A stretch of 64,000 nucleotides of DNA from an uncultured Methanosarcinales archaeon (GTDB lineage Archaea > Nanobdellota > Nanobdellia > Woesearchaeales > UBA583). Within the stretch, counting starts at the first letter, position 1. Each line of letters opens with the position of its first letter. The stretch lies in assembly GCA_964429995.1 (NCBI GenBank), contig CAYSDY010000002.1, forward strand, positions 6,019 to 70,018, written 5' to 3'. Shown here in pieces: positions 363 through 36,832 of the stretch. The notes under the pieces are model-generated. The model was not told where the DNA came from and searched no databases. It worked only from the letters and a program-made list of their open reading frames with translations. A program made the translations under genes and the position numbers.

Positions 363-364
363 AA

Positions 365-9593: not shown

Positions 9594-11036
9594 ATGTATT
9601 CTGGTAATAAAAATATAAAATGCATATCTCCAATTATAGCAACAGCCTTATTGTTAGTTGTAGCTGTAGTTGCAGTTGTTGGTTTTTCATTTTGGTTTGA
9701 GGATTATTCATCTAAAATTTCAAGTAATGTTGAAACATACTCCTCACAAAAGGGTTCTTCTGTTAATATAGAAGCTGTTGTTGGAGATAGTTTGTATATT
9801 AAAAATTCTGGTGATAATGTTACTGTAAAAAATGTTAAAGTTAATGGATTTGATTGTTTGAATAATGATACTGTTTATCAGGAAGGATTTTTTGAAATAA
9901 ATATTAGTTTGTGTATTGATAATCTTAATGTTTCTAATCCTGATGTGCTAATAGTTACAGATAAAGGATTGGTTGAAAAGAAAATATATGTAAAGAATGT
10001 TGTAAATAGTGTTTCTTATGATTGTGTTTTAAATGGTCAAACTATTTTGAATGGTTCTTCTTCTGTTTTTTATAAATATGACAAACCTTACAATAGTGTA
10101 TCAGGGTGTTCTGTAATGTCACAGGAAAGGACATGTAATAATGGAAATCTAAATGGTACATCTGATTATACTTATACAGAGTGTAACGATAGTTTGGCCC
10201 CAAGCCAAGGTGGTGAGTGGTTATTGGTTTTAGGTAATGATGATTTGGGAACAGAAGATTTTTATGTTATGAAATATGAAGCAAAATTTGCAAATATTGC
10301 AAGTAAAACATTTGATGAAGCAAGTGGAGTTTGGCAATATGATAATGCTGGTGGAGATTTGAGTATAACATCAGGCCCTTTAAATGAACCAATAGCATAT
10401 ATTAGTCAAGAGCAAGCTGGTCTTGCATGTTCTTTATTGGGAGATGGTTATAAATTGATAAATCGTTCTGAATGGGTGACTATTGGAAGAGAAATTGAAA
10501 ATATTGCTTATAATTGGGATAGTGGTCAAGTTTATTCAGGTAAATTATATACAGGTCATAGTGATAGAGGTCCCTCTTATGCCTTGCCTGTTTCTGATGT
10601 TGATGATGGTTATGTAGGTACAGGTAATTCTGCACTCTCTGGTATTGATCAAAGAAGAACATTAAAATTGCGTAGTGATGAATTAATATGGGATTTATCA
10701 GGTAATTTATGGGAATGGAATAGTGATGTATTTGAAACAAATGAAGAAAGTTCGTTAGGAACATCTCCTATTGATTGGATGCAATGGACAGAGATAGATT
10801 CATCATACGATTACTTAAAACCTTATAACACATCGCTTACATCTACTAACGGAATAGGACGAGTTAAACCAACATCATCTAATGCTATTCCTAGTGGTAC
10901 AGTTCATGCTTTTGCTTCAGGAGGTGATTGGAATCGTGTTAGTGATACAGGATTTTTTGCATTGTTCTTAGGTTATTCTCCAACAATTTCAATGTTTATG
11001 TCTGATACTACTTTTCGTTGTACATATAATCCATAA
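9594..11036 (+). CDS. pilin-FGE fusion protein, paralog 2 (480 aa)
   Basis: N-terminus KNIKC|ISPIIATALLLVVAVVAVVGFSFWF. The C-terminal domain has FYVMKYEAKF, PIAYISQEQAGLACSLLGDGYKLINRSEWV, GNLWEWNSDVF and TFRCTYNP. The six-frame ORF from 9462 is an upstream read-through; the start is set at the Met that matches the paralogs. Confidence 0.7.
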   Translation: MYSGNKNIKCISPIIATALLLVVAVVAVVGFSFWFEDYSSKISSNVETYSSQKGSSVNIEAVVGDSLYIKNSGDNVTVKNVKVNGFDCLNNDTVYQEGFFEINISLCIDNLNVSNPDVLIVTDKGLVEKKIYVKNVVNSVSYDCVLNGQTILNGSSSVFYKYDKPYNSVSGCSVMSQERTCNNGNLNGTSDYTYTECNDSLAPSQGGEWLLVLGNDDLGTEDFYVMKYEAKFANIASKTFDEASGVWQYDNAGGDLSITSGPLNEPIAYISQEQAGLACSLLGDGYKLINRSEWVTIGREIENIAYNWDSGQVYSGKLYTGHSDRGPSYALPVSDVDDGYVGTGNSALSGIDQRRTLKLRSDELIWDLSGNLWEWNSDVFETNEESSLGTSPIDWMQWTEIDSSYDYLKPYNTSLTSTNGIGRVKPTSSNAIPSGTVHAFASGGDWNRVSDTGFFALFLGYSPTISMFMSDTTFRCTYNP

Positions 11037-11914: not shown

Positions 11915-13204
11915 ATGAGAATAACAAATATTGATGCATTTTCTATACTTGATTCTAGGGGAAATCCTACATTAAAGGTAAAAGTGTTGCTTGATGATGG
12001 TTCTTTGGGTTCATTTGAAGTTCCATCAGGAGCATCTACAGGAGTTCATGAGGCATTAGAACTTCGTGATTGCGATAAATCGCTTTTTGGTGGTAAGTCG
12101 GTTTACAAGGCTATTGATAATGTTTTAAAAATAAGAGATGAACTTATTGGATTTGATTTTACTCAGGAAAGTTTTGATAATAAACTTTTAGAGCTTGATG
12201 GAACTGAAAATAAATCAGTTCTTGGAGCTAATGCTATTCTTGGATTAAGTTGTGCTTTTGCAAGGGCTTGTGCTTTGTATTATGAATTACCATTATATGA
12301 GTATTTGCATAGATTGGTAAATAAGATAGATTTTTTACGAAAAAAAGATTTTTCAATGCACAATGTACATCTTTTTGCAAATGTTATTAATGGTGGAATG
12401 CATTCAGGTAATCTTTTAAAAATTCAGGAATTTATGATAGTTCCTGTTTTTGATGATGTTAACAGGCGTATCAGGGCAATTTCTGAAATATATCAGATGC
12501 TTAAAACATTAATAGAGGAAAAATATGGAAAGAATAGTACTGCTGTTGGTGATGAGGGAGGTTTTGCTCCTGATATTTCAAAAGCAGAGTCTGCATTGGA
12601 TCTTTTAGTTGATGCAATAAACAAGAGCAATTACAAAGATCAGGTATATCTTGCAATGGATGCAGCTGCTTCTGATTTTTACAATAATGAAACATTAAAG
12701 TATGAAGTTGAACAGGATATGTTTTTAGATTATAAGGAATTGTCAGATTACTATAATAAACTTGTTCAGAAATATCCAATAATTTCAATAGAAGATCCGT
12801 TTGCTGAGGATGATTTTGAAGGTTTTGCATATTACATGAAAAATAAGGCAAAGCTTAATATTAAAAATCCTTTAAATGATGAAAAAAAAGAACTTTTGAT
12901 TGTAGGAGATGATTTGCTTGTTACAAATCCTAAGAGGATAAAAACAGCGATAGATAAGAAAATGTGCAATTCTTTGCTTCTTAAAATAAATCAGATAGGA
13001 ACGCTTACTGAAAGCATAAAGGCATATGATATGGCAGTATCTAAAAAATGGCATGTAATAGTTTCACATCGTTCAGGAGAAACAACAGATTCATTCATAT
13101 CAGATTTGTGTGTTGCAATGCAATCATCAATTAAGATAGGTGCTCCATGTAGGGGGGAAAGAACAGCAAAATACAATAGACTTCTTGAAATTTACAGGAA
13201 ATAA
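11915..13204 (+). CDS. eno: enolase (phosphopyruvate hydratase)
   Basis: The N-terminus is ILDSRGNPTLKVKVLLDDGSLGSFEVPSGASTGVHEALELRD. The C-terminus is SHRSGETTDSFISDLCVAMQSSIKIGAPCRGERTAKYNRLLEI. Confidence 0.9.
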   Translation: MRITNIDAFSILDSRGNPTLKVKVLLDDGSLGSFEVPSGASTGVHEALELRDCDKSLFGGKSVYKAIDNVLKIRDELIGFDFTQESFDNKLLELDGTENKSVLGANAILGLSCAFARACALYYELPLYEYLHRLVNKIDFLRKKDFSMHNVHLFANVINGGMHSGNLLKIQEFMIVPVFDDVNRRIRAISEIYQMLKTLIEEKYGKNSTAVGDEGGFAPDISKAESALDLLVDAINKSNYKDQVYLAMDAAASDFYNNETLKYEVEQDMFLDYKELSDYYNKLVQKYPIISIEDPFAEDDFEGFAYYMKNKAKLNIKNPLNDEKKELLIVGDDLLVTNPKRIKTAIDKKMCNSLLLKINQIGTLTESIKAYDMAVSKKWHVIVSHRSGETTDSFISDLCVAMQSSIKIGAPCRGERTAKYNRLLEIYRK

Positions 13205-13322
13205 TTTTTCTAAATTATTGTTTTATTGTCATATTTTTTTTAATAGTTAAAACTTAGTTTTAAAGGAACAGTGGGTGTTTTTAATTTGTTAGGAGTTACT
13301 AATTTTTTTATTATATATTTTT

Positions 13323-13799
13323 ATGTCTTATTATATGGTATCTAAACAGGAGCTTGGTTCTGATGTTGATTTGATCAGAGAGTTTGAGGAGTTAAAAATA
13401 AAACAGAGGTTGCTTATTGATAATTTAAGAAAGAATGGCAATACTCAGCAAAATAGGTTGTTTCTTGAAATTAATTCAAAACTTGATTTTCTTGTAAAAA
13501 TATTTACAGAAGCAAATAAAAATGAAGATGAAGAGGAACACAATCAGGAAAAGGCAAAAACAGATAAAATGTTATTGCAGGTAGATAGTTTAGTTTCAAA
13601 AATTGACACTAATTTTGCAAAAATCAATGATCAGGTGGAAAAGATAAATGCAAGGTTAAAAAAAATAGAAGATTCATCAGTTGTGCCTTTGCAATCTAAT
13701 GTTTTATCAGTACCACAGGATGGTTCAAAAGATATTCCAAACCCTGATTTTAAGGTTAATATTAAAGATGAGGAAAAGCCCAAAAAGAAATGGCTCTAA
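13323..13799 (+). CDS. hypothetical coiled-coil protein (158 aa)
   Basis: Heptad-rich charged sequence with no recognisable motif. Confidence 0.45.
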   Translation: MSYYMVSKQELGSDVDLIREFEELKIKQRLLIDNLRKNGNTQQNRLFLEINSKLDFLVKIFTEANKNEDEEEHNQEKAKTDKMLLQVDSLVSKIDTNFAKINDQVEKINARLKKIEDSSVVPLQSNVLSVPQDGSKDIPNPDFKVNIKDEEKPKKKWL

Positions 13800-13807
13800 T
13801 ATGAAAA

Positions 13808-14803
13808 ATGGTTGATAAAAAAAAAATAATAAATGAATTGAAAAAATATAATGATGACTTAGAGAATCATCTTCCTGAAATGGATTATGATTTTTTGGAT
13901 AACAAATCATTATTTTCATCTTCTGAGTCTGTGCATGATCTTTTACCTCTTGTGACTAGTAATCTTATGGATCTTAAAACAGAGATAGCACTTATGAGAA
14001 AGAATTTTGCCGATTCTGTTGAAGGTATGATGTTAAGACTTATAGCACAGGAAAAGAAGAATATGGATATGCAGATGGATAAGATATTTTCACAACTTAT
14101 GGTTGAAATAAAAGGAAGTTTTGCAGAATACATTGTTGAAATATCATCAGAATTAAATTCTATTAAAAAAGATTTTGCAAAGTCAGTTTCAGCCAATAAG
14201 GATTTTACAGAATCTGTTGCAAGGATAAGTAAAGATTTTTTAGATTTCAAAGCCAGTTTTGCCGATTTTAAAGTGTATAAAAATCAGATAATGGATAGTT
14301 TTAATAAAGTAGACATAGACGAAAAAATTCATATACTAAATTCTCACATATCAAAACTTGATGCAGGGTTTTCTGTTATGGGTAAAGAGATGGATGATAA
14401 GCTTTTAGAATTTGGATCTATTGCACAGAAACTTAAAAGTGACATGGATTCTTTAAGTCTTAATATTGCTGATAGTAGTAAGCAGGTTGAATCAAAGATA
14501 GATAAATTAAATTTTGGAATAAAAAATATAGAAAGAGAAAATACAAAGATAGAGCAAGACATAAAAACAGTTTATGAAAAAAGAAAAAAAGAAGTTGATT
14601 TAGAAAGAAAAGCTTTGCCTTTTGAATCTAAACAGGAAAAAATTAAGATAAACAATGCGATTTCTGATTTATCTGTAATGGATGATGATGATTATAAACC
14701 TTCTGATATAATATCTAAAATACAGGTTGCTTCTGAAATAAAAAGTACTGATAAAATAATTGATATTGAACAAAGAATAAAACGTCTTGAGGGTTTGAAA
14801 TAA
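13808..14803 (+). CDS. hypothetical coiled-coil protein (331 aa)
   Basis: Long ORF, co-directional with and 9 nt downstream of the previous one. Repetitive SxxxDFxKS coiled-coil segments. Confidence 0.5.
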   Translation: MVDKKKIINELKKYNDDLENHLPEMDYDFLDNKSLFSSSESVHDLLPLVTSNLMDLKTEIALMRKNFADSVEGMMLRLIAQEKKNMDMQMDKIFSQLMVEIKGSFAEYIVEISSELNSIKKDFAKSVSANKDFTESVARISKDFLDFKASFADFKVYKNQIMDSFNKVDIDEKIHILNSHISKLDAGFSVMGKEMDDKLLEFGSIAQKLKSDMDSLSLNIADSSKQVESKIDKLNFGIKNIERENTKIEQDIKTVYEKRKKEVDLERKALPFESKQEKIKINNAISDLSVMDDDDYKPSDIISKIQVASEIKSTDKIIDIEQRIKRLEGLK

Positions 14804-14982
14804 AATATATAATTTCGTCTTATTTTTTCTTATTTTGTTTTTAAAAGTCATTTCTTCTTATTTTTTAGTTGTTTATTAACACAACATTACATGTTAATTA
14901 CTATTAAAAGACAAAAAATTTATTTAATCTATTTATTTTTTTGATATATTACAAGCGTTTAAAAACGTATTGAATTTAAAAA

Positions 14983-15411
14983 ATGGTTTTAAATAAAAAA
15001 GCAATAAGTCCGGTAGTGGCTACAGCTCTGCTTTTAGTAGTTGCTGTTGTTGCAGTTGTAGGATTCCAAAGTTGGTTTACTACATACCAGAGTGGAATAA
15101 ACACAAAGGTTGAACAGCAGTCAAACGCTGGTTCAGTTTTAACAATTGAAAGATTAGAATCAAGTGCTAATGGTACTTTGTATTTGAAAAATGCAGGAAC
15201 AGAAAATGTTACAGTTTCATCATTTAAAGTTTTAAAAGATGGAGCAACACAGTGTGATGATTCTGGCTTAACAACAGTTGTTGCAGGTAACAGTGTTGAG
15301 GAACTATCTGGTTCAGGTGCTTGTGATGTTGCTCTTGTTTCAGGTTTGGCATACGATGTTGTTGTTGTTACAAACGTTGGAGTTTTCCAGGCAACAAAAA
15401 TTGCAAGATAA
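14983..15411 (+). CDS. archaeal type IV pilin (class III signal peptide), candidate major pilin of the adjacent pilus locus
   Basis: MVLNKKA|ISPVVATALLLVVAVVAVVGFQSWF is followed by a G/S/T/V-rich β-domain (LYLKNAGTENVTVSSFKV...). This is the same N-terminal module as the FGE-fusion paralogs. Confidence 0.7.
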   Translation: MVLNKKAISPVVATALLLVVAVVAVVGFQSWFTTYQSGINTKVEQQSNAGSVLTIERLESSANGTLYLKNAGTENVTVSSFKVLKDGATQCDDSGLTTVVAGNSVEELSGSGACDVALVSGLAYDVVVVTNVGVFQATKIAR

Positions 15412-15433
15412 AAATCTTGTATAAACAATAAAA

Positions 15434-15841
15434 ATGATTTACAGGAAAGGTTTGGTTTCAATAGCCACCTTTTCTTTTGTTCTTATTCTGATGATTTTTG
15501 TCTTAGGTTTTTCTTATTATGTTTACGATTTAAATAGAAGTTTTTTTATGGAAAAAGATATTGAGAAGGATATGTTTAAGTCAATGCTTGATTTTAGAAC
15601 ACAGGTTGTGTTTATGCATTCATGTAATAATTCATCGGTTACATATAGAAATTCACAATTAATGGAAGGGTTTTTGTTTAATGTAACAGATTCAAAATTT
15701 ACTGCTGTGTATTCTGATGCTGACATAAGGATTGAAAAAAACATTACCATGTATGGAATGAAATTTTGTGATAATTTTGTATTTAATCCTATAGTAGATC
15801 AGATTGTAATATATAATGGGACATGTATTAGCATTATTTGA
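15434..15841 (+). CDS. minor pilin-like protein (class III-like N-terminus RKG|LVSIATFSFVLILMIFVL)
   Basis: A short charged N-terminus with K-G is followed by a ~20-aa hydrophobic helix. The gene is first in a run of five such small genes upstream of the pilus ATPase. Confidence 0.45.
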   Translation: MIYRKGLVSIATFSFVLILMIFVLGFSYYVYDLNRSFFMEKDIEKDMFKSMLDFRTQVVFMHSCNNSSVTYRNSQLMEGFLFNVTDSKFTAVYSDADIRIEKNITMYGMKFCDNFVFNPIVDQIVIYNGTCISII

Positions 15842-15887
15842 TAGTGATTACATTTATTTATTATTTCAAAGCTTGAATCTTTAGTAT

Positions 15888-16364
15888 ATGTTATTCTATA
15901 AAAACAGAAAAGGATTATCTGAAATAATTGCATTTATATTACTCACTTTTCTTATAGTTACAGGTTCTACTTTAGTTTTTTATTTTGTTAAGGATTATGT
16001 GGATGAAGAAGTGTTTAAAATAGATCATATGAAAATGCAGGATAATATGAAAAATATTAACATGAATATAGGCCGTATAAAAAATGTTGATTCATCAGAT
16101 TTTTCTTTTAGCCTTAGTTTTAATACTGGCCTTTTATATTTTCAAGAAGGTATGATGAAGTATTATTCATTGATGGATTTTAATGGTATTGATTATTGTT
16201 TTAACAGTATATGTCATGTTGGAATAATTGGCAAAGAGATGATGTATTTTAACATGAGTTCAGATTATGTTTTTGAGCCTGAATTAAAACTTACTCCTGG
16301 TAATTATCTTATTACATTAAGAAATAATAAAAATGAAAAAAAGATACATGTTACAATCAAGTAA
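15888..16364 (+). CDS. minor pilin-like protein (NRKG|LSEIIAFILLTFLIV)
   Basis: Class III-like signal with Glu at +3, then a hydrophobic helix. Confidence 0.45.
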   Translation: MLFYKNRKGLSEIIAFILLTFLIVTGSTLVFYFVKDYVDEEVFKIDHMKMQDNMKNINMNIGRIKNVDSSDFSFSLSFNTGLLYFQEGMMKYYSLMDFNGIDYCFNSICHVGIIGKEMMYFNMSSDYVFEPELKLTPGNYLITLRNNKNEKKIHVTIK

Positions 16365-16848
16365 TAATCATGTTAAGGCATATATACAGATAGATACTGC
16401 ATTTATAGTGTTAATGTTTATTTTGTTTTTTACATTTGTAGTATATAGGGTTGAATCTTTTAAAAACACATATAATTATGAAATTGAATTCTTAAATCTT
16501 AAGAGTCAATCCGATGATATTTGTTTTATGTTTTCGTATACATCAGGTGATAAATATGACTGGGAAAATAATTTTGAAAATGTTTCAATGATAGGTTTTT
16601 TAAATGATGATAATTCAGGACTTAACATGTCAAAAGTTGAATTTTTAAATGATGATGTGTATTTTGATTTTATTGATAAACTTGGAGTTAAAGATCATTT
16701 ATATGTTAGATTTTCTTATATAAACTCTACTCTTATTAAAGAGTTTGGTTTTGCATCTTATAATTATCCTGTTGTGTTTTCAAACTCTATATGTTTTATT
16801 GACTTTGAAGATGAAATAGTAAAGATGGAGGTGAAATTATGGAAATAA
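16333..16848 (+). CDS. minor pilin-like protein (HVKA|YIQIDTAFIVLMFILFF)
   Basis: Same architecture as its neighbours. It overlaps the neighbouring gene ends. Confidence 0.4.
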   Translation: MKKRYMLQSSNNHVKAYIQIDTAFIVLMFILFFTFVVYRVESFKNTYNYEIEFLNLKSQSDDICFMFSYTSGDKYDWENNFENVSMIGFLNDDNSGLNMSKVEFLNDDVYFDFIDKLGVKDHLYVRFSYINSTLIKEFGFASYNYPVVFSNSICFIDFEDEIVKMEVKLWK

Positions 16849-17261
16849 AAAACAGAAAATCACAAATTACAATAATTGAAACAATTTTTATGATATTGTT
16901 GTTTTTTATATTTGCAGGATATTTATATGGAAATGATTTTAATTTTTTTTATAATGATTATGATTATAACAGCATTGATACTGCTATGATATCAATCTAC
17001 AAATTAAATAATTTTAGGGTTCCTGTGTTTGAAGAAGATATGAATGTTTCTTTAGTAACTGCTGACTGGAATTCATTAAAGGATTTATTGGATATGCAAT
17101 TTTCTGAATATACGGTTTCACTTTTGGATTTGGATGATGAAAAAATGGTTATAAATAGCACAACAAAAAATGTTGCTTATTATTCTTATGATGTATTTTT
17201 TTTTATTGATGATTACAATAATGTTTCAGGTTTTAGATATTTAAGAATGAGGGTGTATTAA
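16839..17261 (+). CDS. minor pilin-like protein (NRKS|QITIIETIFMILLFFIFAG)
   Basis: K-S|Q-I-T-I-I-E is a class III-like signal. It overlaps the neighbouring ORFs (translational coupling). Confidence 0.45.
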   Translation: MEIKNRKSQITIIETIFMILLFFIFAGYLYGNDFNFFYNDYDYNSIDTAMISIYKLNNFRVPVFEEDMNVSLVTADWNSLKDLLDMQFSEYTVSLLDLDDEKMVINSTTKNVAYYSYDVFFFIDDYNNVSGFRYLRMRVY

Positions 17262-17656
17262 TGAAAATGGTTTTAAAATTTAATAATAAGTCACAGATAA
17301 TAGTTCTTGCGTGTGCTTTTCTTTTTTTGATATTTTTATATATCTATTCTTTAGAGACAATGAATTCTTATATAAATATGCCACCTAAAACTACTATATT
17401 GCAGGTTGTTGCTGATGAAGTTTGTTATCTTGCTTATAGAAGTTCTGGGGAGGATTTAGATTTAAGATTGAAGATGGTTAATTCAAGTTTATTGGAATAT
17501 TGTAATAGTGAGGGTTTATTGTGCAGTTTTGACATAATACCTTATGGGGAAGTTCCTCCTTTAGGAAATTGGTCTTTGCTTAATTATTCTTATTATAATT
17601 TTTCATTGTTTGTTTCTGATTCAACTTTTAATTTTACAAGAGAATTTAAATGTTAA
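17261..17656 (+). CDS. minor pilin-like protein (NNKS|QIIVLACAFLFLIFL)
   Basis: Class III-like signal. It lies directly upstream of the ATPase and overlaps it by 7 nt. Confidence 0.45.
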   Translation: MKMVLKFNNKSQIIVLACAFLFLIFLYIYSLETMNSYINMPPKTTILQVVADEVCYLAYRSSGEDLDLRLKMVNSSLLEYCNSEGLLCSFDIIPYGEVPPLGNWSLLNYSYYNFSLFVSDSTFNFTREFKC

Positions 17657-19629
17657 AAATGGATATAAAGAAAATAAGTAAACTTATACAGAATGCAAAG
17701 AAAAATTATGTAGAGAAAAGTGATGATTTTAATATGTATCTTTCTGGAAGAAAACAGTTTAGTTTTCCTCTCATGCAGAATAGACCTTCTAATTCTTTGC
17801 CTAAGTTAGAACAGAATGATGTTAGTTCTGATGGGTCTGTTTCACAACAGGTTAATGCACTGCAGGATGATAATGTTTATCAGGATTTTAATCAGGCAAG
17901 TTCGCCTAACAATGCATTCCAAAATCAGCCAATGTATCCGCCTTCATATTATCCACAGGTTAATGTTATAGGAGGACCTACAAATGGTGCACCAATAAAT
18001 ATTATTGCTAAAAATTATATAGATCCTTTTAGCCTTGAAGATGAGGAAGAGGCTGTTAATGTTAAGAAAAAAAAGAAACATGAGCTTGCAGATGTACCAA
18101 TAAATCTTATTAAAGAATCTTCAACTGATTGGGAGCCTATAAATTATAGAGGAGTAAATGATAGTTATGCACTGTATAAAATGTCAAATGTATTCATAAA
18201 GTTTGATGAGGAACATCAGAAACTTCTTTATAAGATAGTTGAGCCTGAATTATCAGCAGAAGATCAAAAAGTTCTTTTGGAACTTAAAAAAGGTTTCATG
18301 TATGTTTTTGAAAAAATCTCAACAAAAGATTTGGAAAATTCTTCAACTGATTTAATAAACAGAGGTATTAAGGAACTTTCAAAAAAATATGGTATAAAAA
18401 TAAGTGATGAGTCTTTTACAAAGATTGCTTATTATCTTGAAAGGGATTTTTTAGGTCTTGAACAGTTAGAACCTATAATGCATGATAAGTACATAGAGGA
18501 TATTTCATGTGATGGATTAGGAGTTCCTGTTTTTGTTAACCACTTAAAGTATGGACCTATTGAAGTTAACAGGAAATTTGATGATGCAAATAAATTAAAT
18601 TCTTTTATTGTAAAGCTTGCACAAAAATCTAATCAAGAAGTTTCATTATCAAGACCTATATTACAGGGAGCTTTGCCTGATGGTTCAAGAATTGAGGCTA
18701 TTTATGGTAAGGAGGTTTCCGAAAAAGGTTCTTCTTTTACAATAAGAAAGTTTAGAGCTGAACCGTTCACCCCTATACATCTTATAGAATTTGGAACGAT
18801 GCCTCCACTTTTACTTGCTTATTTATGGCTTGCAGTAGAAAATAAAAAATCCATACTTGTGTCTGGTGGTACTGCAACAGGAAAGACAACAATACTTAAT
18901 GCTTTATCATTATTTGTGCCGCCTGCTGCAAAGATAGTTTCTATTGAAGATACTCCAGAAATAAACTTACCACACGAACATTGGCTTCCATTAATATCAA
19001 GAGAATCGCAGACACGTTCTGAGGTTTCAATGTTTGACCTACTTAAAGCTTCGTTAAGAGAGAGACCAGATTACATAATAGTTGGTGAGATAAGAGGTGC
19101 TGAGGCTGCAATTTTATTTCAAGGTATGGCAACAGGACATGCAGGGCTTGGTACAGTTCATGCAGAAAAGTTTACAGATCTTGTTAATCGTATGACAATA
19201 AAACCTATTGAATTACCAAAACAACTGATTACAGAACTTAACATATGTATATTTATGAATAGGGTTAAAGTTAAAGATAACATGGTAAGAAGAGCTGCTA
19301 GTGTTGTTGAGGTTGTTGATTATGATTCAAGAAAAGATACTTTTGAAACAAATGATTTTATGACATTTTTACCAGTTGAAGACTCTTTTGATTTTAGTGA
19401 AAAATCGTTTGTGATAAAACATCTTCTTGAATTAAGAGGTGGTAAGGAAGAGGCCTTATGGAATGAAATAGAAAAAAGAAGAAGAATATTAGATATGATG
19501 TCAAAAAACTTTATAACTGAATTTGAAGATGTAAATGATATCATACAGTCGTATTACAAGGCTCCTTCCGAAATATTTGATTATCTTGAAAATTTTATAA
19601 GTTTGAAAAAAAATAAAAGTGAAGAATGA
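17650..19629 (+). CDS. type IV pilus/archaellum assembly ATPase (FlaI/TadA/VirB11 superfamily) with a ~250-aa Q/N/P-rich N-terminal extension
   Basis: Walker A is VSGGTATGKTTILNAL. Walker B/Asp box is RPDYIIVGEIRGAEA. The His-box region is GHAGLGTVHAE. The N-terminus (QQVNALQDDNVYQDFNQASSPNNAFQNQPMYPPSYYPQ) is low complexity. Confidence 0.85.
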   Translation: MLKMDIKKISKLIQNAKKNYVEKSDDFNMYLSGRKQFSFPLMQNRPSNSLPKLEQNDVSSDGSVSQQVNALQDDNVYQDFNQASSPNNAFQNQPMYPPSYYPQVNVIGGPTNGAPINIIAKNYIDPFSLEDEEEAVNVKKKKKHELADVPINLIKESSTDWEPINYRGVNDSYALYKMSNVFIKFDEEHQKLLYKIVEPELSAEDQKVLLELKKGFMYVFEKISTKDLENSSTDLINRGIKELSKKYGIKISDESFTKIAYYLERDFLGLEQLEPIMHDKYIEDISCDGLGVPVFVNHLKYGPIEVNRKFDDANKLNSFIVKLAQKSNQEVSLSRPILQGALPDGSRIEAIYGKEVSEKGSSFTIRKFRAEPFTPIHLIEFGTMPPLLLAYLWLAVENKKSILVSGGTATGKTTILNALSLFVPPAAKIVSIEDTPEINLPHEHWLPLISRESQTRSEVSMFDLLKASLRERPDYIIVGEIRGAEAAILFQGMATGHAGLGTVHAEKFTDLVNRMTIKPIELPKQLITELNICIFMNRVKVKDNMVRRAASVVEVVDYDSRKDTFETNDFMTFLPVEDSFDFSEKSFVIKHLLELRGGKEEALWNEIEKRRRILDMMSKNFITEFEDVNDIIQSYYKAPSEIFDYLENFISLKKNKSEE

Positions 19630-20627
19630 TAAAGGATCTCAAAAAGCAGGATACTAATAGTAAAAAGATTTTAACAAATGAAAGTCTTATTGAGAAATAT
19701 TGTCATTTTATGTATAGGATATATGGTCGTAAGCTTCTTTTAAATGAAAAATTTAGTAAGATTTTTTATAGAAATTTTTATAACAAAAAATATGAGAAAA
19801 TATTAAGTCAGGCAAATTTAAGATTGATTCCAGAAGAATATTTCATATCCATATTTATGAGTCTTTCTTTTTTTTTATTAGCTTCTATAGTCTTTTCTGT
19901 ATTATTATCTTTTACGCATCCAATATGGGCCATGTTATTGTTTTATATAGGTGTTTTTGGGGTTGCAGTTATTGGGATTTTTATGTATAATTATCCTGTT
20001 GTTACAGCAAAATCAAGGGGTAGTGAGGTTGATGCATCAATTCCTTATGTGCTACCATACATGAAAATATTGTCAAAAGAATTAAGTCTTGCAAAAATAA
20101 TAGATATAATTGATGATTTTCTTATATATAAGCAGATTAAGATAGAATTTCAAAGAATAAAGTATTACTATTCTGTTATGGGATACGATTTAAACAGTTC
20201 AATTAGGTCTGCTATGGAGAGTTGTCCTTCTAAAAATCTTTCTGATATGATGAACGATCTTGTAACAATTTCAAATTCAGGAGGAAACATATATACTTAT
20301 CTTGAAAGAAAACTTGAAAATCTTAATAAGGAAATAAACGCAATAGAAAGTAAAAGTATAGATACATTGCTTATATATTCTCAGATTTATGTAGTTATTC
20401 TACTTATTTCACCACTGTTTTATACCATAATGAGCTCTATACTTAACATGATAGATATAAGTGCTGCTGCAGGAGATTCTATTGCTGGTTCAGGTAGTGG
20501 AACAGGGGTTGTATCATCAATAGTTATGCTTTTGTTTTTTTTACCAATTGCTTATATAGCTTTTATGACACTTATATATTATTCAAAGCCACTTTATTCA
20601 AGGCTTGAGCCAATCAATGAAAAATGA
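19626..20627 (+). CDS. pilus platform membrane protein, TadB/TadC (T2SSF) family, first of two
   Basis: Several TM helices flank a cytoplasmic T2SSF-like helical domain (SCPSKNLSDMMNDLVTISNSGGNIYTYLERKLENL...). The start overlaps the ATPase stop (ATGA). Confidence 0.7.
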   Translation: MIKDLKKQDTNSKKILTNESLIEKYCHFMYRIYGRKLLLNEKFSKIFYRNFYNKKYEKILSQANLRLIPEEYFISIFMSLSFFLLASIVFSVLLSFTHPIWAMLLFYIGVFGVAVIGIFMYNYPVVTAKSRGSEVDASIPYVLPYMKILSKELSLAKIIDIIDDFLIYKQIKIEFQRIKYYYSVMGYDLNSSIRSAMESCPSKNLSDMMNDLVTISNSGGNIYTYLERKLENLNKEINAIESKSIDTLLIYSQIYVVILLISPLFYTIMSSILNMIDISAAAGDSIAGSGSGTGVVSSIVMLLFFLPIAYIAFMTLIYYSKPLYSRLEPINEK

Positions 20628-21472
20628 ACAGTAATCTTAGTAATATTGAGGAAAAAGTAAGACTGGTTTTGCTTATTTTGGCATTTATATCTTTTATTTT
20701 AGGAATATTTTATACTATAAGTCATATAAACTATCCTAAAAACATAAATGTTGTTTTGATAATGCCTTTTATATTTTTTCTTGTGCCATATCTTTTTTTA
20801 GGATTGTTTAAGGTAAAAAGAATAGAAGCAAAAATGCATATAATACCTAGGTTTTTAAGAGATATTGTTGATAATGTTGATAGTGGAATGGATCTTATAT
20901 CATCTATTAAAAGTACAAGTGAAAATGAATATTCAATATTAAATGAAGATATTGAAAAATTGGTTAATCAATTATCATGGGGTGTTGATTTTAATGAGGC
21001 ATTGTCAAAGTTTGCTGATAATGTTGGAGATTACAATTTAAAGAGAGATTTTAGACTTGTAATTGAGGCAAGGGCTGTAGGTGGGCATGTTGATCAGATA
21101 TTAAGAGAGTTGTCATCAAAAATAGAAATAGACAATTTAAGAGGTAAGGAACGTAAGAGCAATCTTGCATCAAATACATTTACTGGTTATATTTCATTTG
21201 TAATATTTCTTTTCATAATAATACTTGTTTATAACAACTTGTTTTTGGGTATTGCAAGTAGTTTTTCTGCAACACAAACATTTGCACAAATTCAAGATAC
21301 AAATAATATGATGAATATTAATCTTACTTTTCTTATACTGCTTGCTTATGAACTTGCAATACTTTCAGGGTTTTTGTTTGGACTTATGCAGGATAATAAC
21401 ATAATAAGTGGGGCTCCGCATGTTGTTATACTTGTTGTTATAGTTTTTGTAGGTTTTTTCTTTTTTATTTAA
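20624..21472 (+). CDS. pilus platform membrane protein, TadC (T2SSF) family, second of two
   Basis: T2SSF-like domain: DSGMDLISSIKSTSENEYSILNEDIEKLVNQLSWGVDFNEALSKFADNVGDYNLKRDFRLVIEARAVGGHVDQILRELS. It is ATGA-overlapped with the previous gene. Confidence 0.7.
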   Translation: MNSNLSNIEEKVRLVLLILAFISFILGIFYTISHINYPKNINVVLIMPFIFFLVPYLFLGLFKVKRIEAKMHIIPRFLRDIVDNVDSGMDLISSIKSTSENEYSILNEDIEKLVNQLSWGVDFNEALSKFADNVGDYNLKRDFRLVIEARAVGGHVDQILRELSSKIEIDNLRGKERKSNLASNTFTGYISFVIFLFIIILVYNNLFLGIASSFSATQTFAQIQDTNNMMNINLTFLILLAYELAILSGFLFGLMQDNNIISGAPHVVILVVIVFVGFFFFI

Positions 21473-21538
21473 ACGCTTTATTTGGCGAAATAATATGTCA
21501 AAATTTTTATAAAGGATATTTAATTTGTTAATAATAGT

Positions 21539-21613
21539 GGCATTGTGGTCTAATCTGGATATGACAATAGCCTCCTAAGCTATAGGTTGAGGGTTCGAAT
21601 CCCTCCGATGTCG
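21539..21613 (+). tRNA. tRNA-Arg (anticodon CCU), 75 nt, no encoded CCA
   Basis: Hand-folded cloverleaf. The acceptor GGCATTG/CGATGTC has two G-U pairs. The anticodon stem is ATAGC/GCTAT with loop CU-CCU-AA. The T-arm is GAGGG-TTCGAAT-CCCTC. It is followed by a T8 run. Confidence 0.7.
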
Positions 21614-21621
21614 TTTTTTTT
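21614..21621 (+). terminator. T8 tract immediately 3' of tRNA-Arg
   Basis: tcgTTTTTTTTac directly abuts the discriminator base. Confidence 0.35.
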
Positions 21622-21677: not shown

Positions 21678-21917
21678 ATGGTTGCAGTTGAAACAAATTT
21701 TCTGTTTTATGTTATGTTCTGGACCATATTGGCTATGATGCTTGTACTTATATATGCATTAAAACAAGTTATAAGTACTCAAAGATATATAGAAAATATA
21801 GATAAGAACATAGAAAAGCTTGTGTTAAGGATTTCTAAAAAGGAATCTATGATATTAGATGAAGAGAAAGAAATATTACGCGATATTGATTCTCTTGCTT
21901 CAAGAAATAAAAAATAA
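21678..21917 (+). CDS. small membrane protein (79 aa), hypothetical
   Basis: An N-terminal TM helix (FLFYVMFWTILAMMLVLIYAL) and a charged C-terminus. Confidence 0.35.
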   Translation: MVAVETNFLFYVMFWTILAMMLVLIYALKQVISTQRYIENIDKNIEKLVLRISKKESMILDEEKEILRDIDSLASRNKK

Positions 21918-21937
21918 AAAAATATACTTTTTAAAAG

Positions 21938-22822
21938 ATGTCTAAAATTTTGGATTTTATATCCGAGCTTGATGCTAAGAGTTTTCTTTCTGCTCTTATT
22001 GATTCATCATTTTATAGATATCTGTTTCCGTTTTTGCTTGTTTTTACAGTTCTTAATGCAATCTTACCGAATGCTTTAATTTTTAAGAATAAAAAAACAG
22101 GTAAGCCATATAAGGCAGTCGTATTTACAATTTCATTAATAGTTGCACTTTTTAGTGTGAGTTTTGAAATTTCTGATGCTGGATATGTTCTTGGTGATTT
22201 TATATGCATGATGTTTCCTAACATTTCAGCATTAACGATTGCAATACTTTGTTTGTATTTTGTTGGTGCAATAATTGGGGAAAATTTTTTTAAGGGAGCT
22301 TTAAGTCCAAGATACACATCTTTTTTAACAATATTTATACTTTTTATAGGTTTTGGAAGTTTTATTTATTATATGGGAATTGTAATGGGATTTTGGGATG
22401 ATTATGTTATCTCAAATTTATTTTTCTGGAACATTACAATTGCAATAATATTTACTGTACTTGGACTCTTATTTTTATTTATAGATATGGCCCTTTATGG
22501 GCTTTTGTTGTTGGTGATTGTTGGTGGATTTATTGCAAATTATGGAGATAATGTGTCAATACTTAGCTATTTTGTTGATCCAATAATATTTATAGCATTT
22601 TTATTCGTTGCATTTTTTACATATCTTACACAAAACGATGATGATCTTGAAACCCAAAAAGATAGAATTAGAAAGAAGATGGATGATATTTCAAAAGAGA
22701 TGGAATCCATTAAGAAATCAAATTCTGGAAAAGAACCTAAAGATTATGAACATAAGATATATGATATTTTAAAGGCATCTTATTATGATTATGAAAAAAA
22801 GCTAAAGAAACTTGAAAAATAA
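21938..22822 (+). CDS. polytopic membrane protein (294 aa), paralog of 22951-23607
   Basis: It shares the N-terminal module ...SFLSALIDSSFYRYLFPFLLVFTVLNAI... with the next gene (...SFIEALIDGGWYEFVFPFFLVFAVVFTI...). Confidence 0.5.
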   Translation: MSKILDFISELDAKSFLSALIDSSFYRYLFPFLLVFTVLNAILPNALIFKNKKTGKPYKAVVFTISLIVALFSVSFEISDAGYVLGDFICMMFPNISALTIAILCLYFVGAIIGENFFKGALSPRYTSFLTIFILFIGFGSFIYYMGIVMGFWDDYVISNLFFWNITIAIIFTVLGLLFLFIDMALYGLLLLVIVGGFIANYGDNVSILSYFVDPIIFIAFLFVAFFTYLTQNDDDLETQKDRIRKKMDDISKEMESIKKSNSGKEPKDYEHKIYDILKASYYDYEKKLKKLEK

Positions 22823-22950
22823 TTAAAAATATTTTCTAATGATTAAGGTTATTTATAGCATTAATTTTTTGATCAATTGTTATGACACTTTATGTTTTAA
22901 CCAATTAGTAATAAGCAAAGTTATTAATAAGTGTTTGTCGCATATTCTTT

Positions 22951-23607
22951 ATGGGTTGGATTACTGATTCCTTAGGAGATTTAGATGTCACCTCTTTTAT
23001 AGAGGCTTTGATTGATGGCGGATGGTATGAATTTGTTTTCCCCTTCTTTCTTGTTTTTGCAGTGGTCTTTACAATAATGAAGAAAGTAACTATCTTTCAA
23101 GATAAAAAATCTGTTCATTTTATAGTTGCGTTTGTTTTTTCTTTATTTGCAATAGCATTTCCAATAACAGGTGATTTTGATAACTGTGGGGTAGGATATG
23201 GAGGGTATGGTTGTGAGACTCTTGGAAGCCTTCTTATGACAATGTTTCCAGGGGTTTCTGCATTTACAATGGGTGTTCTTGCTTTGTATATTGTGTGTGC
23301 TATGCTTGGTGTTGATCTTATGGACTTTTTTAATCCAGAGAATAAGACATACAATAAATACATAAAATATGTTTTAGCAGTGATAGGAACATTGGTTGTG
23401 GTTTATTATTATGCAAGAGGTTTTGGATGGGAAGGATTTGAATCTGATTCTCTTAGCTGGTTATTTGGAGATGATGGTTTACTTGCAGATCCTATGTTGT
23501 ATATTATCATTGTATTTGGAGGTTTGTTCTACTGGATTACAACTGATGACAATAAAGTTGGTGGTAAACCAGCACCACCAGCACCACCAGCACCACCAGC
23601 ACCTTAA
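22951..23607 (+). CDS. polytopic membrane protein (218 aa), paralog of the previous gene, with a C-terminal (PAP)n tail
   Basis: See paralogy above. It ends KPAPPAPPAPPAP, encoded by a 9-bp tandem repeat. Confidence 0.5.
   Translation: MGWITDSLGDLDVTSFIEALIDGGWYEFVFPFFLVFAVVFTIMKKVTIFQDKKSVHFIVAFVFSLFAIAFPITGDFDNCGVGYGGYGCETLGSLLMTMFPGVSAFTMGVLALYIVCAMLGVDLMDFFNPENKTYNKYIKYVLAVIGTLVVVYYYARGFGWEGFESDSLSWLFGDDGLLADPMLYIIIVFGGLFYWITTDDNKVGGKPAPPAPPAPPAP
23569..23604 (+). repeat. microsatellite-like 9-bp tandem repeat (gcaccacca) x ~4 encoding PAPPAPPAPPAP
   Basis: ccagcaccaccagcaccaccagcaccaccagcacct. It is a possible slippage-prone (phase-variable length) tract. Confidence 0.7.
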
Positions 23608-23618
23608 GCTAAATTAAA

Positions 23619-24605
23619 ATGGGAAAAAAAAATATATTTTTGATGACAATTATGCTTGCATTCATGTTCATGTTTGCAGGTTGTGATGCTAATACTGATG
23701 ATACTAAGCAAAATGCACTTGTTTTAACAGGTGCTTATAATGGGGGAGATAATGCTCTAAGTTTAAAATTTGTTGATGGACAACCACCTTCAAAGATAAG
23801 AGATGGGGGTCTTCAACCATTTAATATAAGAATGCTTATCGAAAATCTTGGAGAATATACCATACCTGAGAACAAGACACATGTATGTCTTTCTGGAATA
23901 AATCATAAAGAGTTTGGTATTGAGGATAGTTCTTTAGATATTCCTGAACTAAGAGGAGTTAAAAAACAGGGTACTAATACAATAAATGGTGCTATATTAC
24001 CTGTTTTGTTTTCAAATCTTAAATATTATCCAGAACTTCCTGCAGGAACAAACAAACAGAAGATTTTAGTTGATTTGTCATATCCTTACAAGACAAAGGC
24101 ATTGATTAGCTTATGTGTTAGTGGAAATACTTTACAGACACAGGATAAAACATTAAAGGTCTGTGAAATAGAAGGAAAAAGAACATTTGCAAATTCAGGT
24201 TCACCTGTTCAGATTAACAATGTTATTCAGACACCAGCAGGACCTAATTCATTGATGTTACAGTTTGACATAATCAAGAAAAGCAAAAGTGGAAGAATTT
24301 ATAGACCTTCTACATTGGATGAAGAATGTAGAGTTCTTGGAAATTCTGTTGCATCATCAGAAGCTTCAATGTCTGAAAATTATGTTGAATATATAGTTGA
24401 TACAAATGGTGTTGGTAGTATTTCTTGTGGTGGTTCTAATCAGAATAGTGAAGTTGTCTTATTGACAAATTCTAAAACTACTGTTTATTGTACAATTGAT
24501 ACAAAAGGAGAACAGGATTATGAAAAGCCAATTAGTGTTGAATTAAATTATGATTATTTTGAAAGATTTGAATTATCTGTTGATATAGAGCATGTTGCTA
24601 GATAA
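23619..24605 (+). CDS. secreted lipoprotein (328 aa), hypothetical
   Basis: Signal peptide with a lipobox-like motif: MLAFMFMFAGC|DANTDD. Confidence 0.5.
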   Translation: MGKKNIFLMTIMLAFMFMFAGCDANTDDTKQNALVLTGAYNGGDNALSLKFVDGQPPSKIRDGGLQPFNIRMLIENLGEYTIPENKTHVCLSGINHKEFGIEDSSLDIPELRGVKKQGTNTINGAILPVLFSNLKYYPELPAGTNKQKILVDLSYPYKTKALISLCVSGNTLQTQDKTLKVCEIEGKRTFANSGSPVQINNVIQTPAGPNSLMLQFDIIKKSKSGRIYRPSTLDEECRVLGNSVASSEASMSENYVEYIVDTNGVGSISCGGSNQNSEVVLLTNSKTTVYCTIDTKGEQDYEKPISVELNYDYFERFELSVDIEHVAR

Positions 24606-27068: not shown

Positions 27069-28073
27069 ATGGATGATAAAAATAATGTTTACAAAATAGA
27101 GAAAGATTTTCTAATTAATCTTAAAATGGGTGATATTAGAAAAGCGGATTTTCTTGATGTTGTTTATGATGATTCTTGCGTAAAAGAGATGGATATAAAA
27201 GATGTTTTATCTATTGATAAAAATATTATTTCAAGTATAGAATACAAAGAATCATTAAAATTAAAAAAGACTATAATTGAAAACTTTAAACACAATAGAA
27301 TTTTTTCTGTATTATCTGATACTAAGCTGAGTATTAATGGGAGTGGACAACTATATATTGTTGTTGAAAAAGATGTAAACATATTTCTTGATTTTGACAT
27401 GTCATCTTTATTGGCAGGATTAGTTGTTAATATAATTGTTAAAAATAAAAGTATCTGCAATATATTTGAAATAAATACAGGCGATAATTTTTACAAATTG
27501 TCATATATTTTTTGTGATGATAATTGTGTTGTTAATCATTATATTGTAAATAGTGATGTTAAAAGTTCCAATATATGTACTATAATAAAAGAATCAGGAA
27601 CATATTACACAGATATAATAAATCTTAACAAAAATGTTTCTCATAAAGGATTTACTTATCTTTATAACTTACAGCAAAACTCTGTTTCAGAACTTTTGCT
27701 TATTGCAATTGCTGAAAATGGATTTTCTATTGATTGTAGTGGACTTGTAAGAATATCTAAAGATGCTAAAAATGCATCTGGAAAACAAAATCTTAAAGGA
27801 TTTTTAATAGATGATGAATCTTTAATATTATTAAAACCGGATCTTGAAGTTTTAAATAATGATGTTGCATGTTCTCATAAGGCTGAGGTTTTTGATTTTT
27901 CCTATATGCAAAAATATTATATGGAATCTAGAGGCATATTTGAGGGTGATATATATGATATGATAATATTGGGAAAAGCCTTATTCTTTTTAAACAAAGC
28001 TTTTACATATTGTTTTATTAGTGATTTTAATAAATGCTTGGAAAAAAGTCTTCATCTAAAGATTTCTTCCTAA
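27069..28073 (+). CDS. sufD: Fe-S cluster assembly protein SufD-like
   Basis: The C-terminal region DVACSHKAEVFDFSYMQKYYMESRGIFEGDIYDMIILG matches the SufD/SufB β-helix C-terminus. It lies immediately downstream of sufB. No sufC is in the window. Confidence 0.7.
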   Translation: MDDKNNVYKIEKDFLINLKMGDIRKADFLDVVYDDSCVKEMDIKDVLSIDKNIISSIEYKESLKLKKTIIENFKHNRIFSVLSDTKLSINGSGQLYIVVEKDVNIFLDFDMSSLLAGLVVNIIVKNKSICNIFEINTGDNFYKLSYIFCDDNCVVNHYIVNSDVKSSNICTIIKESGTYYTDIINLNKNVSHKGFTYLYNLQQNSVSELLLIAIAENGFSIDCSGLVRISKDAKNASGKQNLKGFLIDDESLILLKPDLEVLNNDVACSHKAEVFDFSYMQKYYMESRGIFEGDIYDMIILGKALFFLNKAFTYCFISDFNKCLEKSLHLKISS

Positions 28074-30048
28074 TGTATTCATAAAATTCTAAATAATTAT
28101 TTTCTTCTATTATCTTATTACTGTATGGAACTTTAAACATTATAGAATTTCCTGTATGTATATTATCAAAACTAAAATTTTTAAATTCAATCATTCCTTT
28201 TAACTGATAATCTTTATCAGTATAAAACAAAGTTATGTTGTATTCTATATCTTCTAATTCTAAAAGGGATATGCTATTTAGGTATTCTGAATCCTGATTT
28301 GGCCATATAGCTACCGATTCATGTGCATATTCTTCATTCTCAATAATTACTAAAACTTGACCATCTTCTTGATTGATTATTCTTTTACCAATTTGTGTAT
28401 CCTTATCTATAAGAAGTACATATTCAGCACTGTCAAATTTGAATTCTTTTAATCTTATCATCTCAAAATCAACTCTATTGTCTCCTATGAAAGTTTCTCT
28501 TCTTAACAATGAATTATCTGTATCTATCCTTTTTTTTGATGTTAAATACCCATCTTTTTGTGCAATTACATACCCTCCTATGCAAAATGGAAACTTTACT
28601 TGTAATTCTGGGTCTGCGTATTGTCTTGTAATTCCTAGATATTTTGGTTTTTGAGTTGTTCCCATATCACATTTGATTCCCATGCATTGGTATGATATTG
28701 CAACATTATCTATAGGATTTAGATCAATATCGCTTGTTGTTATTAAAAGATCATATTTCATGTTGTTTTCGGAACAATAATCTTTCTTGTTAAATGTTAA
28801 ACCACTGTTTTCTGATATTATTATGTTGTTGTTTTTAGGTTCGTTGTTATCTATCTTAATTCTTATTGGAAATTGAAAGACAAAATTAGAATTGTCTTTT
28901 GAGTCTTTTAATTTTACTATAAGGTCATAATCAAGAGTGTATAAGTGATGGTATATCTGAATACATGGGATTGGTATCTGCCATCCTAAATTCATATCAA
29001 GTGTCATTGCTTCTGTTATTATACCATTACTTGGGGTTACATCAAAAGTTCTGTATGGATATCTTTTAAAATATCCGCTTTGATTGTTGATTTCTGTTGA
29101 TGGCATAAAAACTTGAACATCATAATTAGTGTAACTTTTTTTTTTATTATCAAGACTAATCCTGTACATATTGTTGTAATAAGATTTTATTTCCTTGTAA
29201 TCATCAAGATTGCTTAGTGCTGATTCTAATAAAATATTTTGTTTTTCTAGTGTGCCTTCAAACTGTAGGTATTTAAAATTGTTATTGTTCATGCTTGCAA
29301 GATTTTTTTTTAAATTATCTATTGTCCATATTCTTTTTGCACATGAAAAGAACATTCCTTCAGATGGCATTGATATATCAGATGAATAGTCGTTTGCCGA
29401 ATGAATTTGTTCTAAAACAAGTTTTTCAAAAAAATTACTTTTAGCTTGTTGATTATATATTTCTAGTGCTAGATTGTATAAATTTCCAAGATGGATATTT
29501 TCAAGTTTTACTACATAATTAGATATTGTAAGTATTTCATTTGAATTTTTTTCATTGAATCTTATATTTAGTTCTGATTCAATAACTATATTATAGTCAT
29601 TTATTATTGCATTTGTACTAAATGCATCTGAAACAGTTATATCAAACGATTCATTTAATGCTAAAAGATTTGATTTAATACATGAATAACTATTTGCAAG
29701 GATATATGATTCAAGTTCATTTTCCATAGATGATATTGTTGGAAAACTGTTTGTTGATGAATCCCAATTGGGTATTTTAATTCCAAAATCTGTGTATGAA
29801 AAAGGATTTGCATTTATAGATTTAGGTATTGATATATAACCTCCCTGAAGACCTATAAAATTTGCACCATTTTTTGCTGAATCATATATACAGTCTTTTA
29901 CTATTGCAGATACCTGGTTTTTTAATTTTGTATCATGGCTTTGGAAAATTTCTATTTCTGAGTTATATAGTAAAAATATTGAAACAATTACAAGTATTAT
30001 TCCTATTATTACAAATAAACTGACCTGAGATTTTTTTTTAGCATCCAT
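28027..30048 (-). CDS. large secreted protein (673 aa) with a pilin-type (class III-like) N-terminus KKS|QVSLFVIIGIILVIVSIFLLY
   Basis: The N-terminal motif K-S|Q-V-S plus a hydrophobic helix resembles the minor pilins at 16839 and 17261. The rest is N/S/Y-rich extracellular sequence. Confidence 0.55.
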   Translation of the reverse strand: MDAKKKSQVSLFVIIGIILVIVSIFLLYNSEIEIFQSHDTKLKNQVSAIVKDCIYDSAKNGANFIGLQGGYISIPKSINANPFSYTDFGIKIPNWDSSTNSFPTISSMENELESYILANSYSCIKSNLLALNESFDITVSDAFSTNAIINDYNIVIESELNIRFNEKNSNEILTISNYVVKLENIHLGNLYNLALEIYNQQAKSNFFEKLVLEQIHSANDYSSDISMPSEGMFFSCAKRIWTIDNLKKNLASMNNNNFKYLQFEGTLEKQNILLESALSNLDDYKEIKSYYNNMYRISLDNKKKSYTNYDVQVFMPSTEINNQSGYFKRYPYRTFDVTPSNGIITEAMTLDMNLGWQIPIPCIQIYHHLYTLDYDLIVKLKDSKDNSNFVFQFPIRIKIDNNEPKNNNIIISENSGLTFNKKDYCSENNMKYDLLITTSDIDLNPIDNVAISYQCMGIKCDMGTTQKPKYLGITRQYADPELQVKFPFCIGGYVIAQKDGYLTSKKRIDTDNSLLRRETFIGDNRVDFEMIRLKEFKFDSAEYVLLIDKDTQIGKRIINQEDGQVLVIIENEEYAHESVAIWPNQDSEYLNSISLLELEDIEYNITLFYTDKDYQLKGMIEFKNFSFDNIHTGNSIMFKVPYSNKIIEENNYLEFYEYIRKKSLDEDFFPSIY

Positions 30049-30049
30049 T

Positions 30050-30448: not shown

Positions 30449-30518
30449 ATAAAATACCTGTAGCTTATTTTTAAAAAAATCTATTATTATCTTTTAGTAA
30501 TGAAAATAATTAAAATGA

Positions 30519-36820: not shown

Positions 36821-36832
36821 CGTTTTAAGTAC
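36790..36832. repeat. tandem duplication of a 20-bp unit, AAAACTTGACGTTTTAAGTA x2. Each unit can form an AAAAC/GTTTT hairpin.
   Basis: gaAAAACTTGACGTTTTAAGTAttAAAACTTGACGTTTTAAGTAct. The second copy contains the NUDIX stop codon. It lies between convergent genes. Confidence 0.7.

Follow-up and report, generated by a model that had tools for sequence, protein, structure and literature searches.

Positions 14983-21472 of the 64-kb window analysed here (the whole stretch of archaeal contig DNA; G+C ~28%) are filled by nine genes on the forward strand, very likely, in our view, an operon with which a DPANN archaeon (Woesearchaeota/Nanoarchaeia-like, small and AT-rich) assembles a type IV pilus (T4P) of a PilB3/GspE-FlaI-related kind with a two-gene platform. 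Tested for membership of the archaeal T4P, the locus has the secretion ATPase, both halves of the platform and pilins with class III signals; a prepilin peptidase was not found in the window. A HMMER comparison with T2SSE, T2SSF and archaeal pilin models, the check proposed with the original prediction of this locus, placed the ATPase, the two platform proteins and the first pilin above cut-off.

The nine open reading frames (ORFs), called g1 to g9 here in their order, are co-directional and mostly overlapping, as the original prediction had described them. Identical gene calls were obtained on contigs of three independent assemblies (JGI, Logan and ENA), the sole difference being the start of g4, which lies at 16348 in the public calls (166 amino acids, aa) and at 16333 in the longest ORF. 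Gaps of 22 nucleotides (nt) and 46 nt separate g1 from g2 and g2 from g3, respectively. From g3 to g9 each junction overlaps by 1-17 nt, with a 4-nt overlap, ATGA, at both g7/g8 and g8/g9, and these seven genes are predicted to be translationally coupled. The locus is bounded upstream by an AT-rich spacer of 179 nt and downstream by the gene for tRNA-Arg(CCT) (21538-21614).

Close orthologous loci were found through exact-protein look-ups, and a metagenome scan with an ATPase alignment, which employed generic Walker-region peptides, contained no close relatives among the matches listed. The order of pilin, five small genes, ATPase and two half-platform genes is kept in four of these loci (L004, L164, L165 and L166). 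In L005 the pilin alone is missing from the set, the locus beginning at the contig end, and L167 carries four small genes followed by the ATPase and the two platform halves. Across all six loci the ATPase is 56-67% identical to g7.

The ATPase and its split platform

The g7 product (17650-19629, 659 aa) is a hexameric secretion ATPase of the FlaI/GspE/PilB3 type. It matched Pfam T2SSE above cut-off (1.1e-33), and its best NCBIfam match was the archaellum FlaI model (437 bits, E 1.2e-130, residues 181-638), which has a cut-off of 550. In direct comparisons with solved structures it scored 386 bits against Archaeoglobus fulgidus GspE (2OAP; residues 182-641 aligned with 44-502) and 308 bits against Sulfolobus acidocaldarius FlaI (4II7/4IHQ; residues 190-646 aligned with 52-510), versus 139 bits against CpaF; the TadA model TIGR03819 gave 169.7 bits for a cut-off of 373, and the bindosome BasE model 227 bits (E 3.6e-67) for a cut-off of 1000. 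By these scores g7 is best classified as a T2SSE ATPase whose nearest kin are A. fulgidus GspE and FlaI and not TadA/CpaF, so that of the FlaI/TadA type first proposed for it the FlaI kinship holds and the TadA kinship does not.

The protein begins with an appendage. In the AlphaFold2 (AF2) model a helix spans residues 6-32, residues 33-142 are disordered (pLDDT < 50), and the chain is folded from ~147 into a canonical N-domain and a P-loop ATPase core, aligning from ~181 with the N-domains of FlaI and GspE. The N-domain and the RecA-like ATPase core are thus common to g7, 2OAP and S. acidocaldarius FlaI, whereas the appendage, which the model puts at ~140 aa with a linker of ~110 aa, is extra in g7. 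A Q/N/P/S content of 50% is confined to residues 41-120, and among 84 homologues conservation is moderate over residues 1-35, gives way to variable and gappy columns at 41-100, and rises from ~100. The low-complexity region is therefore much shorter than the first ~250 residues that had been assigned to it. Nor does it set g7 apart from its family, as had been supposed: lengths of 600-830 aa prevail among the 85 closest database homologues, many of which cover 98-100% of the query, so the extension appears typical of the subfamily. Relatives at 38-47% identity are also long and carry Pfam PilB3_N and PilB3_C, as seen in P0087, P0097, P0109 and the ATPase of the Methanoculleus locus L064; unlike these relatives, g7 itself matched neither Pfam domain at E <= 0.1. 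The ATPase ORF of L064 measures 790 aa and has a low-complexity N-terminal region as well.

The platform is encoded by two genes, g8 (19626-20627, 333 aa, ~4 transmembrane (TM) segments) and g9 (20624-21472, 282 aa, ~5 TM segments), each with one Pfam T2SSF domain above cut-off (1.8e-6 and 2e-15, respectively). Their NCBIfam matches were solely to archaeal FlaJ/UpsF models: g8 aligns to positions 6-214 of the 555 of ArlJ/FlaJ and to positions 6-215 of the 484 of UpsF, and g9 to ArlJ/FlaJ positions 261-542. Since g8 corresponds to the N-half and g9 to the C-half of FlaJ in the model alignment, the pair would equal one FlaJ severed between its halves with the original order retained. The original prediction was right in seeing two T2SSF proteins of ~300 aa in place of one fused FlaJ, but not in calling them like bacterial TadB/TadC; likewise, the label "Tad-like" fits the split two-gene architecture alone, and neither the ATPase (CpaF 139 versus GspE 386) nor the platform matches.

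For 160 related loci from genome-collection and metagenome scans, among the matches listed, we classified the platform genes that follow the ATPase; the genome-collection ATPase scan, which served this census, returned mostly Methanomicrobiales loci and two from DPANN. Where the ATPase scored at least 400 bits to g7, the classifiable loci comprised 83 with a split platform, including ~75 from Methanomicrobiales, and none with a fused one. At 350-400 bits there were 11 split and 4 fused, and at 300-350 bits 4 split and 11 fused. Because no fused platform stood beside the 83 split ones in the closest class, the split is likely to be an old, clade-wide trait and no peculiarity of this locus. Many euryarchaeal loci of clade 2 have been reported to contain, like those of clade 1, two tadC-like genes (Makarova et al. 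2016, PMC4858521, section 11), and gene fission has been invoked to explain both TadB/TadC and the Epd pair (Denise et al., PMC6668835). In Tad, the C-like TadB comes before the N-like TadC, and in Epd the platform genes come before the ATPase (PMC6668835); the order found here, ATPase, N-half and C-half, looks like the order left by simple fission.

In the ~75 Methanomicrobiales species (L006-L083), an ATPase 38-41% identical to g7 is followed by N-half and C-half platform genes. Both loci that were inspected, L063 and L064, had no pilin genes adjoining the ATPase and platform, an arrangement that resembles the "pilins in trans" of the PilB3 type.

Major pilin and minor-pilin-like proteins

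All six proteins encoded by g1-g6 start with a class III-like signal, in which Lys at -2 and Gly, Ala or Ser at -1 precede a hydrophobic stretch of at least 20 aa. The pattern occurs in 13 of 60 window proteins, and six of the 13 are consecutive at this locus. It is conserved in orthologues from the six diverged loci (L004, L005 and L164-L167). The original prediction had noticed it in the five small proteins following the pilin.

The major pilin g1 (14983-15411, 142 aa) has a predicted class III signal, MVLNKKA before the cleavage site and ISPVVATALLLVVAVVAVVGFQ after it, ahead of a beta domain of the Ig-like type that contains two Cys (91 and 114). It passed the archaellin/pilin N-terminal domain model TIGR02537 (28.3 bits; cut-off 20), which bears out the earlier reading of the first gene as a class III-signal pilin, and weakly matched UpsA (6e-6, NCBIfam); the archaellin domain PF01917 gave no match in the Pfam scan. 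Its N-terminus is almost invariant in L004 and L164-L166. Against the T4P pilin of Pyrobaculum calidifontis (8FK7), g1 gave a full-length phmmer match (E 4.3e-8; 142 versus 144 aa), in which the N-terminal helix and both Cys are paired, and in 8FK7 these Cys form an intramolecular disulfide (PMC10334743). The likeness between the two systems lies in the major pilin; a KaiC/FlaH-like ATPase belongs to the locus of P. calidifontis (PMC10334743), whereas none was seen here, and the organism and the other locus content differ. An antisense ORF of 161 aa (14976-15461, reverse strand) covers the whole pilin gene and is omitted by public gene callers; most probably it arises as an artefact of the pilin coding sequence, which is Ala/Val-rich and locally richer in G+C.

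The five minor-pilin-like proteins are small, and Cys pairs or residues and N-glycosylation sequons are conserved across their families. In g2 (15434-15841, 135 aa) the N-terminus reads MIYRKG/LVSIATFSFVL (the slash marks the predicted cleavage site), and the class III-like form is retained in most orthologues (KKG/V or KKG/I in L164 and L165; NKS/A and NSG/F in L004 and L005); a conserved Cys pair, FC...NGTC, and six N-glycosylation sequons follow. The N-terminus of g3 (15888-16364, 158 aa) ends in NRKG/LSEIIAF, where the Glu at +3 is invariant, and the protein has a CxxxxC pair. That of g4 (16348-16848 by the public gene calls, 166 aa) ends in HVKA/YIQIDTAF with a conserved Q-I-D, placing an Asp at +5, and its orthologues in L164-L166 have KKG/[YF]LQIDF. 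In g5 (16839-17261, 140 aa) it reads MEIKNRKS/QITIIETIF with a conserved acidic residue (Glu/Asp) at +6, the orthologues starting with KLA/QITVIE, KKS/QITVIE or KKA/QFSIFD. Each of the last three helices therefore has its own conserved acidic position. The N-terminus of g6 (17261-17656, 131 aa) ends in FNNKS/QIIVLACAF; conserved Cys residues, a YS.ET.N.Y motif and the KG/Q junction are kept in its family, its orthologues have KKG/QF.. or KKS/QF.., and phmmer gave matches in all six loci.

The AF2 model of g3 (pLDDT 86.7) comprises a helix at 6-64 and an all-beta domain at 71-157, the predicted fold being of general pilin architecture. A search of the model against the PDB returned no significant structural neighbour, and the sole match of the family profile among PDB sequences was 8FK7, with an E of 1.1 and limited to the N-terminal helix. 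Three of seven g3 orthologues weakly matched the haloarchaeal Pfam family DUF7289 (best E 6.6e-6). A word-indexed search with the g3 profile found just nine proteins, and we therefore used an exhaustive HMMER search for the family size; because it gave 73 representative clusters among 1.84e9 proteins, the family appears to be narrow. When g1-g6 were compared with one another by hhalign, the similarity was essentially limited to the N-terminal signal and helix and spanned the most columns for g2-g3 (78) and g4-g6 (68); g2-g6 are therefore five distinct families and components, not recent paralogues.

Neighbouring genes and candidate substrates

Two proteins encoded upstream on the forward strand carry a pilin module related to g1 and are probable substrates in trans. 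One (6124-7587, 487 aa) starts with KKC/ISPVVATALLLVVAV... and matches FGE-sulfatase (6.3e-7); it is 53% identical to g1 over residues 5-83. The other (9594-11036, 480 aa in the public gene call) has the same module, with 54% identity to g1 over residues 4-83. They are paralogues of 57% identity with the FGE-sulfatase-like domain at the C-terminus, and in both the predicted -1 position is Cys and not Gly, Ala or Ser (KKC/ISP... and IKC/ISP...). Judging from the shared module, both probably belong to this pilus system.

A second class III-like cluster lies on the reverse strand and comprises 28027-30048 (673 aa, KKKS/QVSLF), 30050-30448 (132 aa, NRKA/IQSHV) and 30519-33338 (939 aa, VKKA/QITIF). 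None of the three had a Pfam match, and from their N-termini they, too, may be substrates of the pilus machinery.

Immediately before the pilin gene, two coiled-coil proteins, u1 (13323-13799) and u2 (13808-14803), are encoded on the forward strand and have no family match. Synteny holds for them in five close loci, their position being kept in L004, L164, L165 and L166, and they are absent beside the more distant L167. Because enolase is also syntenic, their functional link to the pilus is not established. Past the tRNA-Arg gene, a forward-strand block (21678-24605) encodes a 79-aa TM protein, two multi-TM paralogues (294 and 218 aa, with N-termini 35% identical) and a 328-aa lipoprotein-like protein. 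The block is conserved in L005, L164, L165 and L166, all its members being without a family match, and in L166 an adenylosuccinate synthase gene stands between it and the pilus genes.

In L167, which stems from a 948-kb contig of a more distant relative, the stretch 13057-19507 next to the pilus locus contains a diversity-generating retroelement (DGR; bAvd-like, RVT_1). Beside it is encoded a DUF285/Lcl_C protein of 1204 aa, which at its N-terminus matches the g1 pilin (E 2e-5) and would be a DGR-diversified pilin-headed adhesin.

Relation to other filaments and proposed assembly

The system resembles, and is most probably to be grouped with, the archaeal pili of the GspE/PilB3 type ("clade 2"). 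The euryarchaeal T4P of this clade include the PilB3-PilC3 system of Haloferax volcanii with its PilA pilins and PilB4-type loci with their own pilin sets (PMC4858521). The likeness lies in a GspE/FlaI-related ATPase, in the two tadC-like genes that frequently follow it there, to which g8 and g9 correspond here, and in the set of several pilin-like proteins that many of those loci encode in cis, as this one does; nanoarchaeal representatives of the clade have been noted (PMC4858521). The differences are that g7 lacks the PilB3 domain matches of its relatives and that the five minor-pilin families are lineage-specific here, g3 alone weakly touching the haloarchaeal DUF7289.

Three points weigh against the T4P assignment. 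No family match in Pfam or NCBIfam was obtained for g2 and g4-g6, and Ser at -1, as in g5 and g6, and Cys at -1, as in the two FGE-domain pilins, are uncommon in archaeal class III signals by FlaFind-type rules. The third concerns the processing of the predicted prepilins: the Pfam scan, which covered 58 window proteins at E <= 0.01-0.1, 19 of them also against NCBIfam, detected no prepilin peptidase of the Peptidase_A24 type, just as the original prediction had reported none in the window (two ORFs of 175-193 aa and six ribosomal-protein ORFs at 6-3129 lay outside the scan). We considered the multi-TM proteins at 21938-23607 and a 5-TM protein of 190 aa (36825-37397) as hidden prepilin peptidases and rejected them, as they showed no A24 match and, by eye, no obvious GxGD-type motif. 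Archaeal genomes often carry the gene at an unlinked site (PMC4858521, section 15), and its absence from the window argues against describing the locus as "complete" and not against function.

Memberships in the archaellum, Tad/Flp and bindosome systems were each rejected because the defining features were lacking, the FlaI, TadA and BasE scores of g7 all lying below cut-off. Among these, the least improbable, although still unlikely, is a bindosome-like or pseudopilus display, in which g1-g6 would build a short membrane-anchored stalk; instead of forming long pili, its main task would be to present large class III-signal proteins on the cell surface, such as the FGE-domain ones or those of 673-939 aa at 28027-33338. 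Five of the 13 window proteins with class III-like N-termini are indeed large, the BasE match of g7 is significant in its E-value, and five conserved "minor" subunits recall the pseudopilus sets of type II secretion systems. The BasE score, however, falls far short of its cut-off, the pilin to which g1 is homologous over its full length builds long filaments (PMC10334743), and pili-like appendages have been imaged on ultrasmall cells that are likely members of the candidate phyla radiation (CPR) or DPANN (PMC7906910).

A reduced archaellum, which would be a motility filament that rotates, is very improbable and already largely refuted. It could appeal to FlaI as the best NCBIfam match of g7, to weak sub-threshold matches of g1 to ArlG and ArlF, and to the closest solved homologue of g1 being a "flagellar-like" pilin. 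The FlaI match is nevertheless below cut-off, no FlaH/KaiC, FlaF, FlaG, FlaX or FlaCDE match exceeded threshold in the window scans, the platform is split instead of being a fused FlaJ, and g1 has no PF01917 match; supercoiling is absent even from the filament of P. calidifontis, which is counted among the pili (PMC10334743). We give equally little credence to horizontal acquisition of a bacterial-type Tad/Flp pilus or to direct membership of the Epd-like archaeal clade from which Tad arose. As in Tad and in the Epd pili of Methanococcus, two adjacent single-T2SSF-domain platform genes adjoin the ATPase (PMC6668835), and the present system would share with them the character of an adhesion-type pilus without a dedicated retraction ATPase. 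Yet g7 is far from CpaF/TadA and its nearest relatives are archaeal PilB3-domain ATPases, the gene order is unlike that of Tad and Epd, and g1 is an Ig-like pilin of 142 aa, not a short Flp, the Flp1_like match (E 0.022) reaching 14.7 bits against a cut-off of 33.5. The window scans found no Flp-type short pilin, no ParA/MinD-like (TadZ) and no A24 (TadV) protein, and a secretin, too, is lacking here.

If the locus is the T4P assembly operon that we favour, six prepilins, the major g1 and the five distinct, low-abundance g2-g6, would enter the membrane, where an aspartyl prepilin peptidase encoded elsewhere would trim their short K-[G/A/S] leaders. g8 and g9 would form a heterodimeric platform, the equivalent of one two-domain FlaJ/PilC, on which the g7 hexamer would dock and, using ATP, lift pilins from the membrane into a helical filament. 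The N-terminal helices would make the core of this filament and g1 its shaft, and by analogy with other type IV filaments and their minor pilin sets g2-g6 would most likely be a priming or tip complex. The FGE-fused g1-like modules could enter the same filament as adhesive subunits, and the pilus may serve in attachment to hosts or surfaces. A bolder version is rather doubtful: the minor pilins would be a tip complex that both nucleates the g1 filament and mounts modular pilin-headed adhesins, the FGE-domain proteins in this window and the DGR-diversified protein beside L167, making the pilus of Woesearchaeota-like DPANN archaea a programmable host-recognition device, and the helix and linker of g7 would anchor the motor on a scaffold in the cytoplasm such as the coiled-coil proteins at 13323-14803. 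A role of the pilus in host attachment, which the original prediction had favoured, is plausible because pili-like appendages linking ultrasmall cells, likely CPR or DPANN, to their hosts have been imaged (PMC7906910).

The locus is genuine but ordinary, the split platform and extended ATPase being normal among its relatives and already known in this branch, and our understanding of archaeal T4P is unchanged by it. Specific to the organism are its five minor pilin families, which are lineage-restricted, and the adhesins headed by a pilin module. DPANN archaea are believed to rely on physical contact with host cells, which pili are the prime candidates to establish. For a Woesearchaeota-like pilus, the locus provides a conserved parts list, in which a single major pilin and five fixed minor ones are joined by an ATPase and a platform of two genes, and links it to genes for pilin-headed adhesins nearby.

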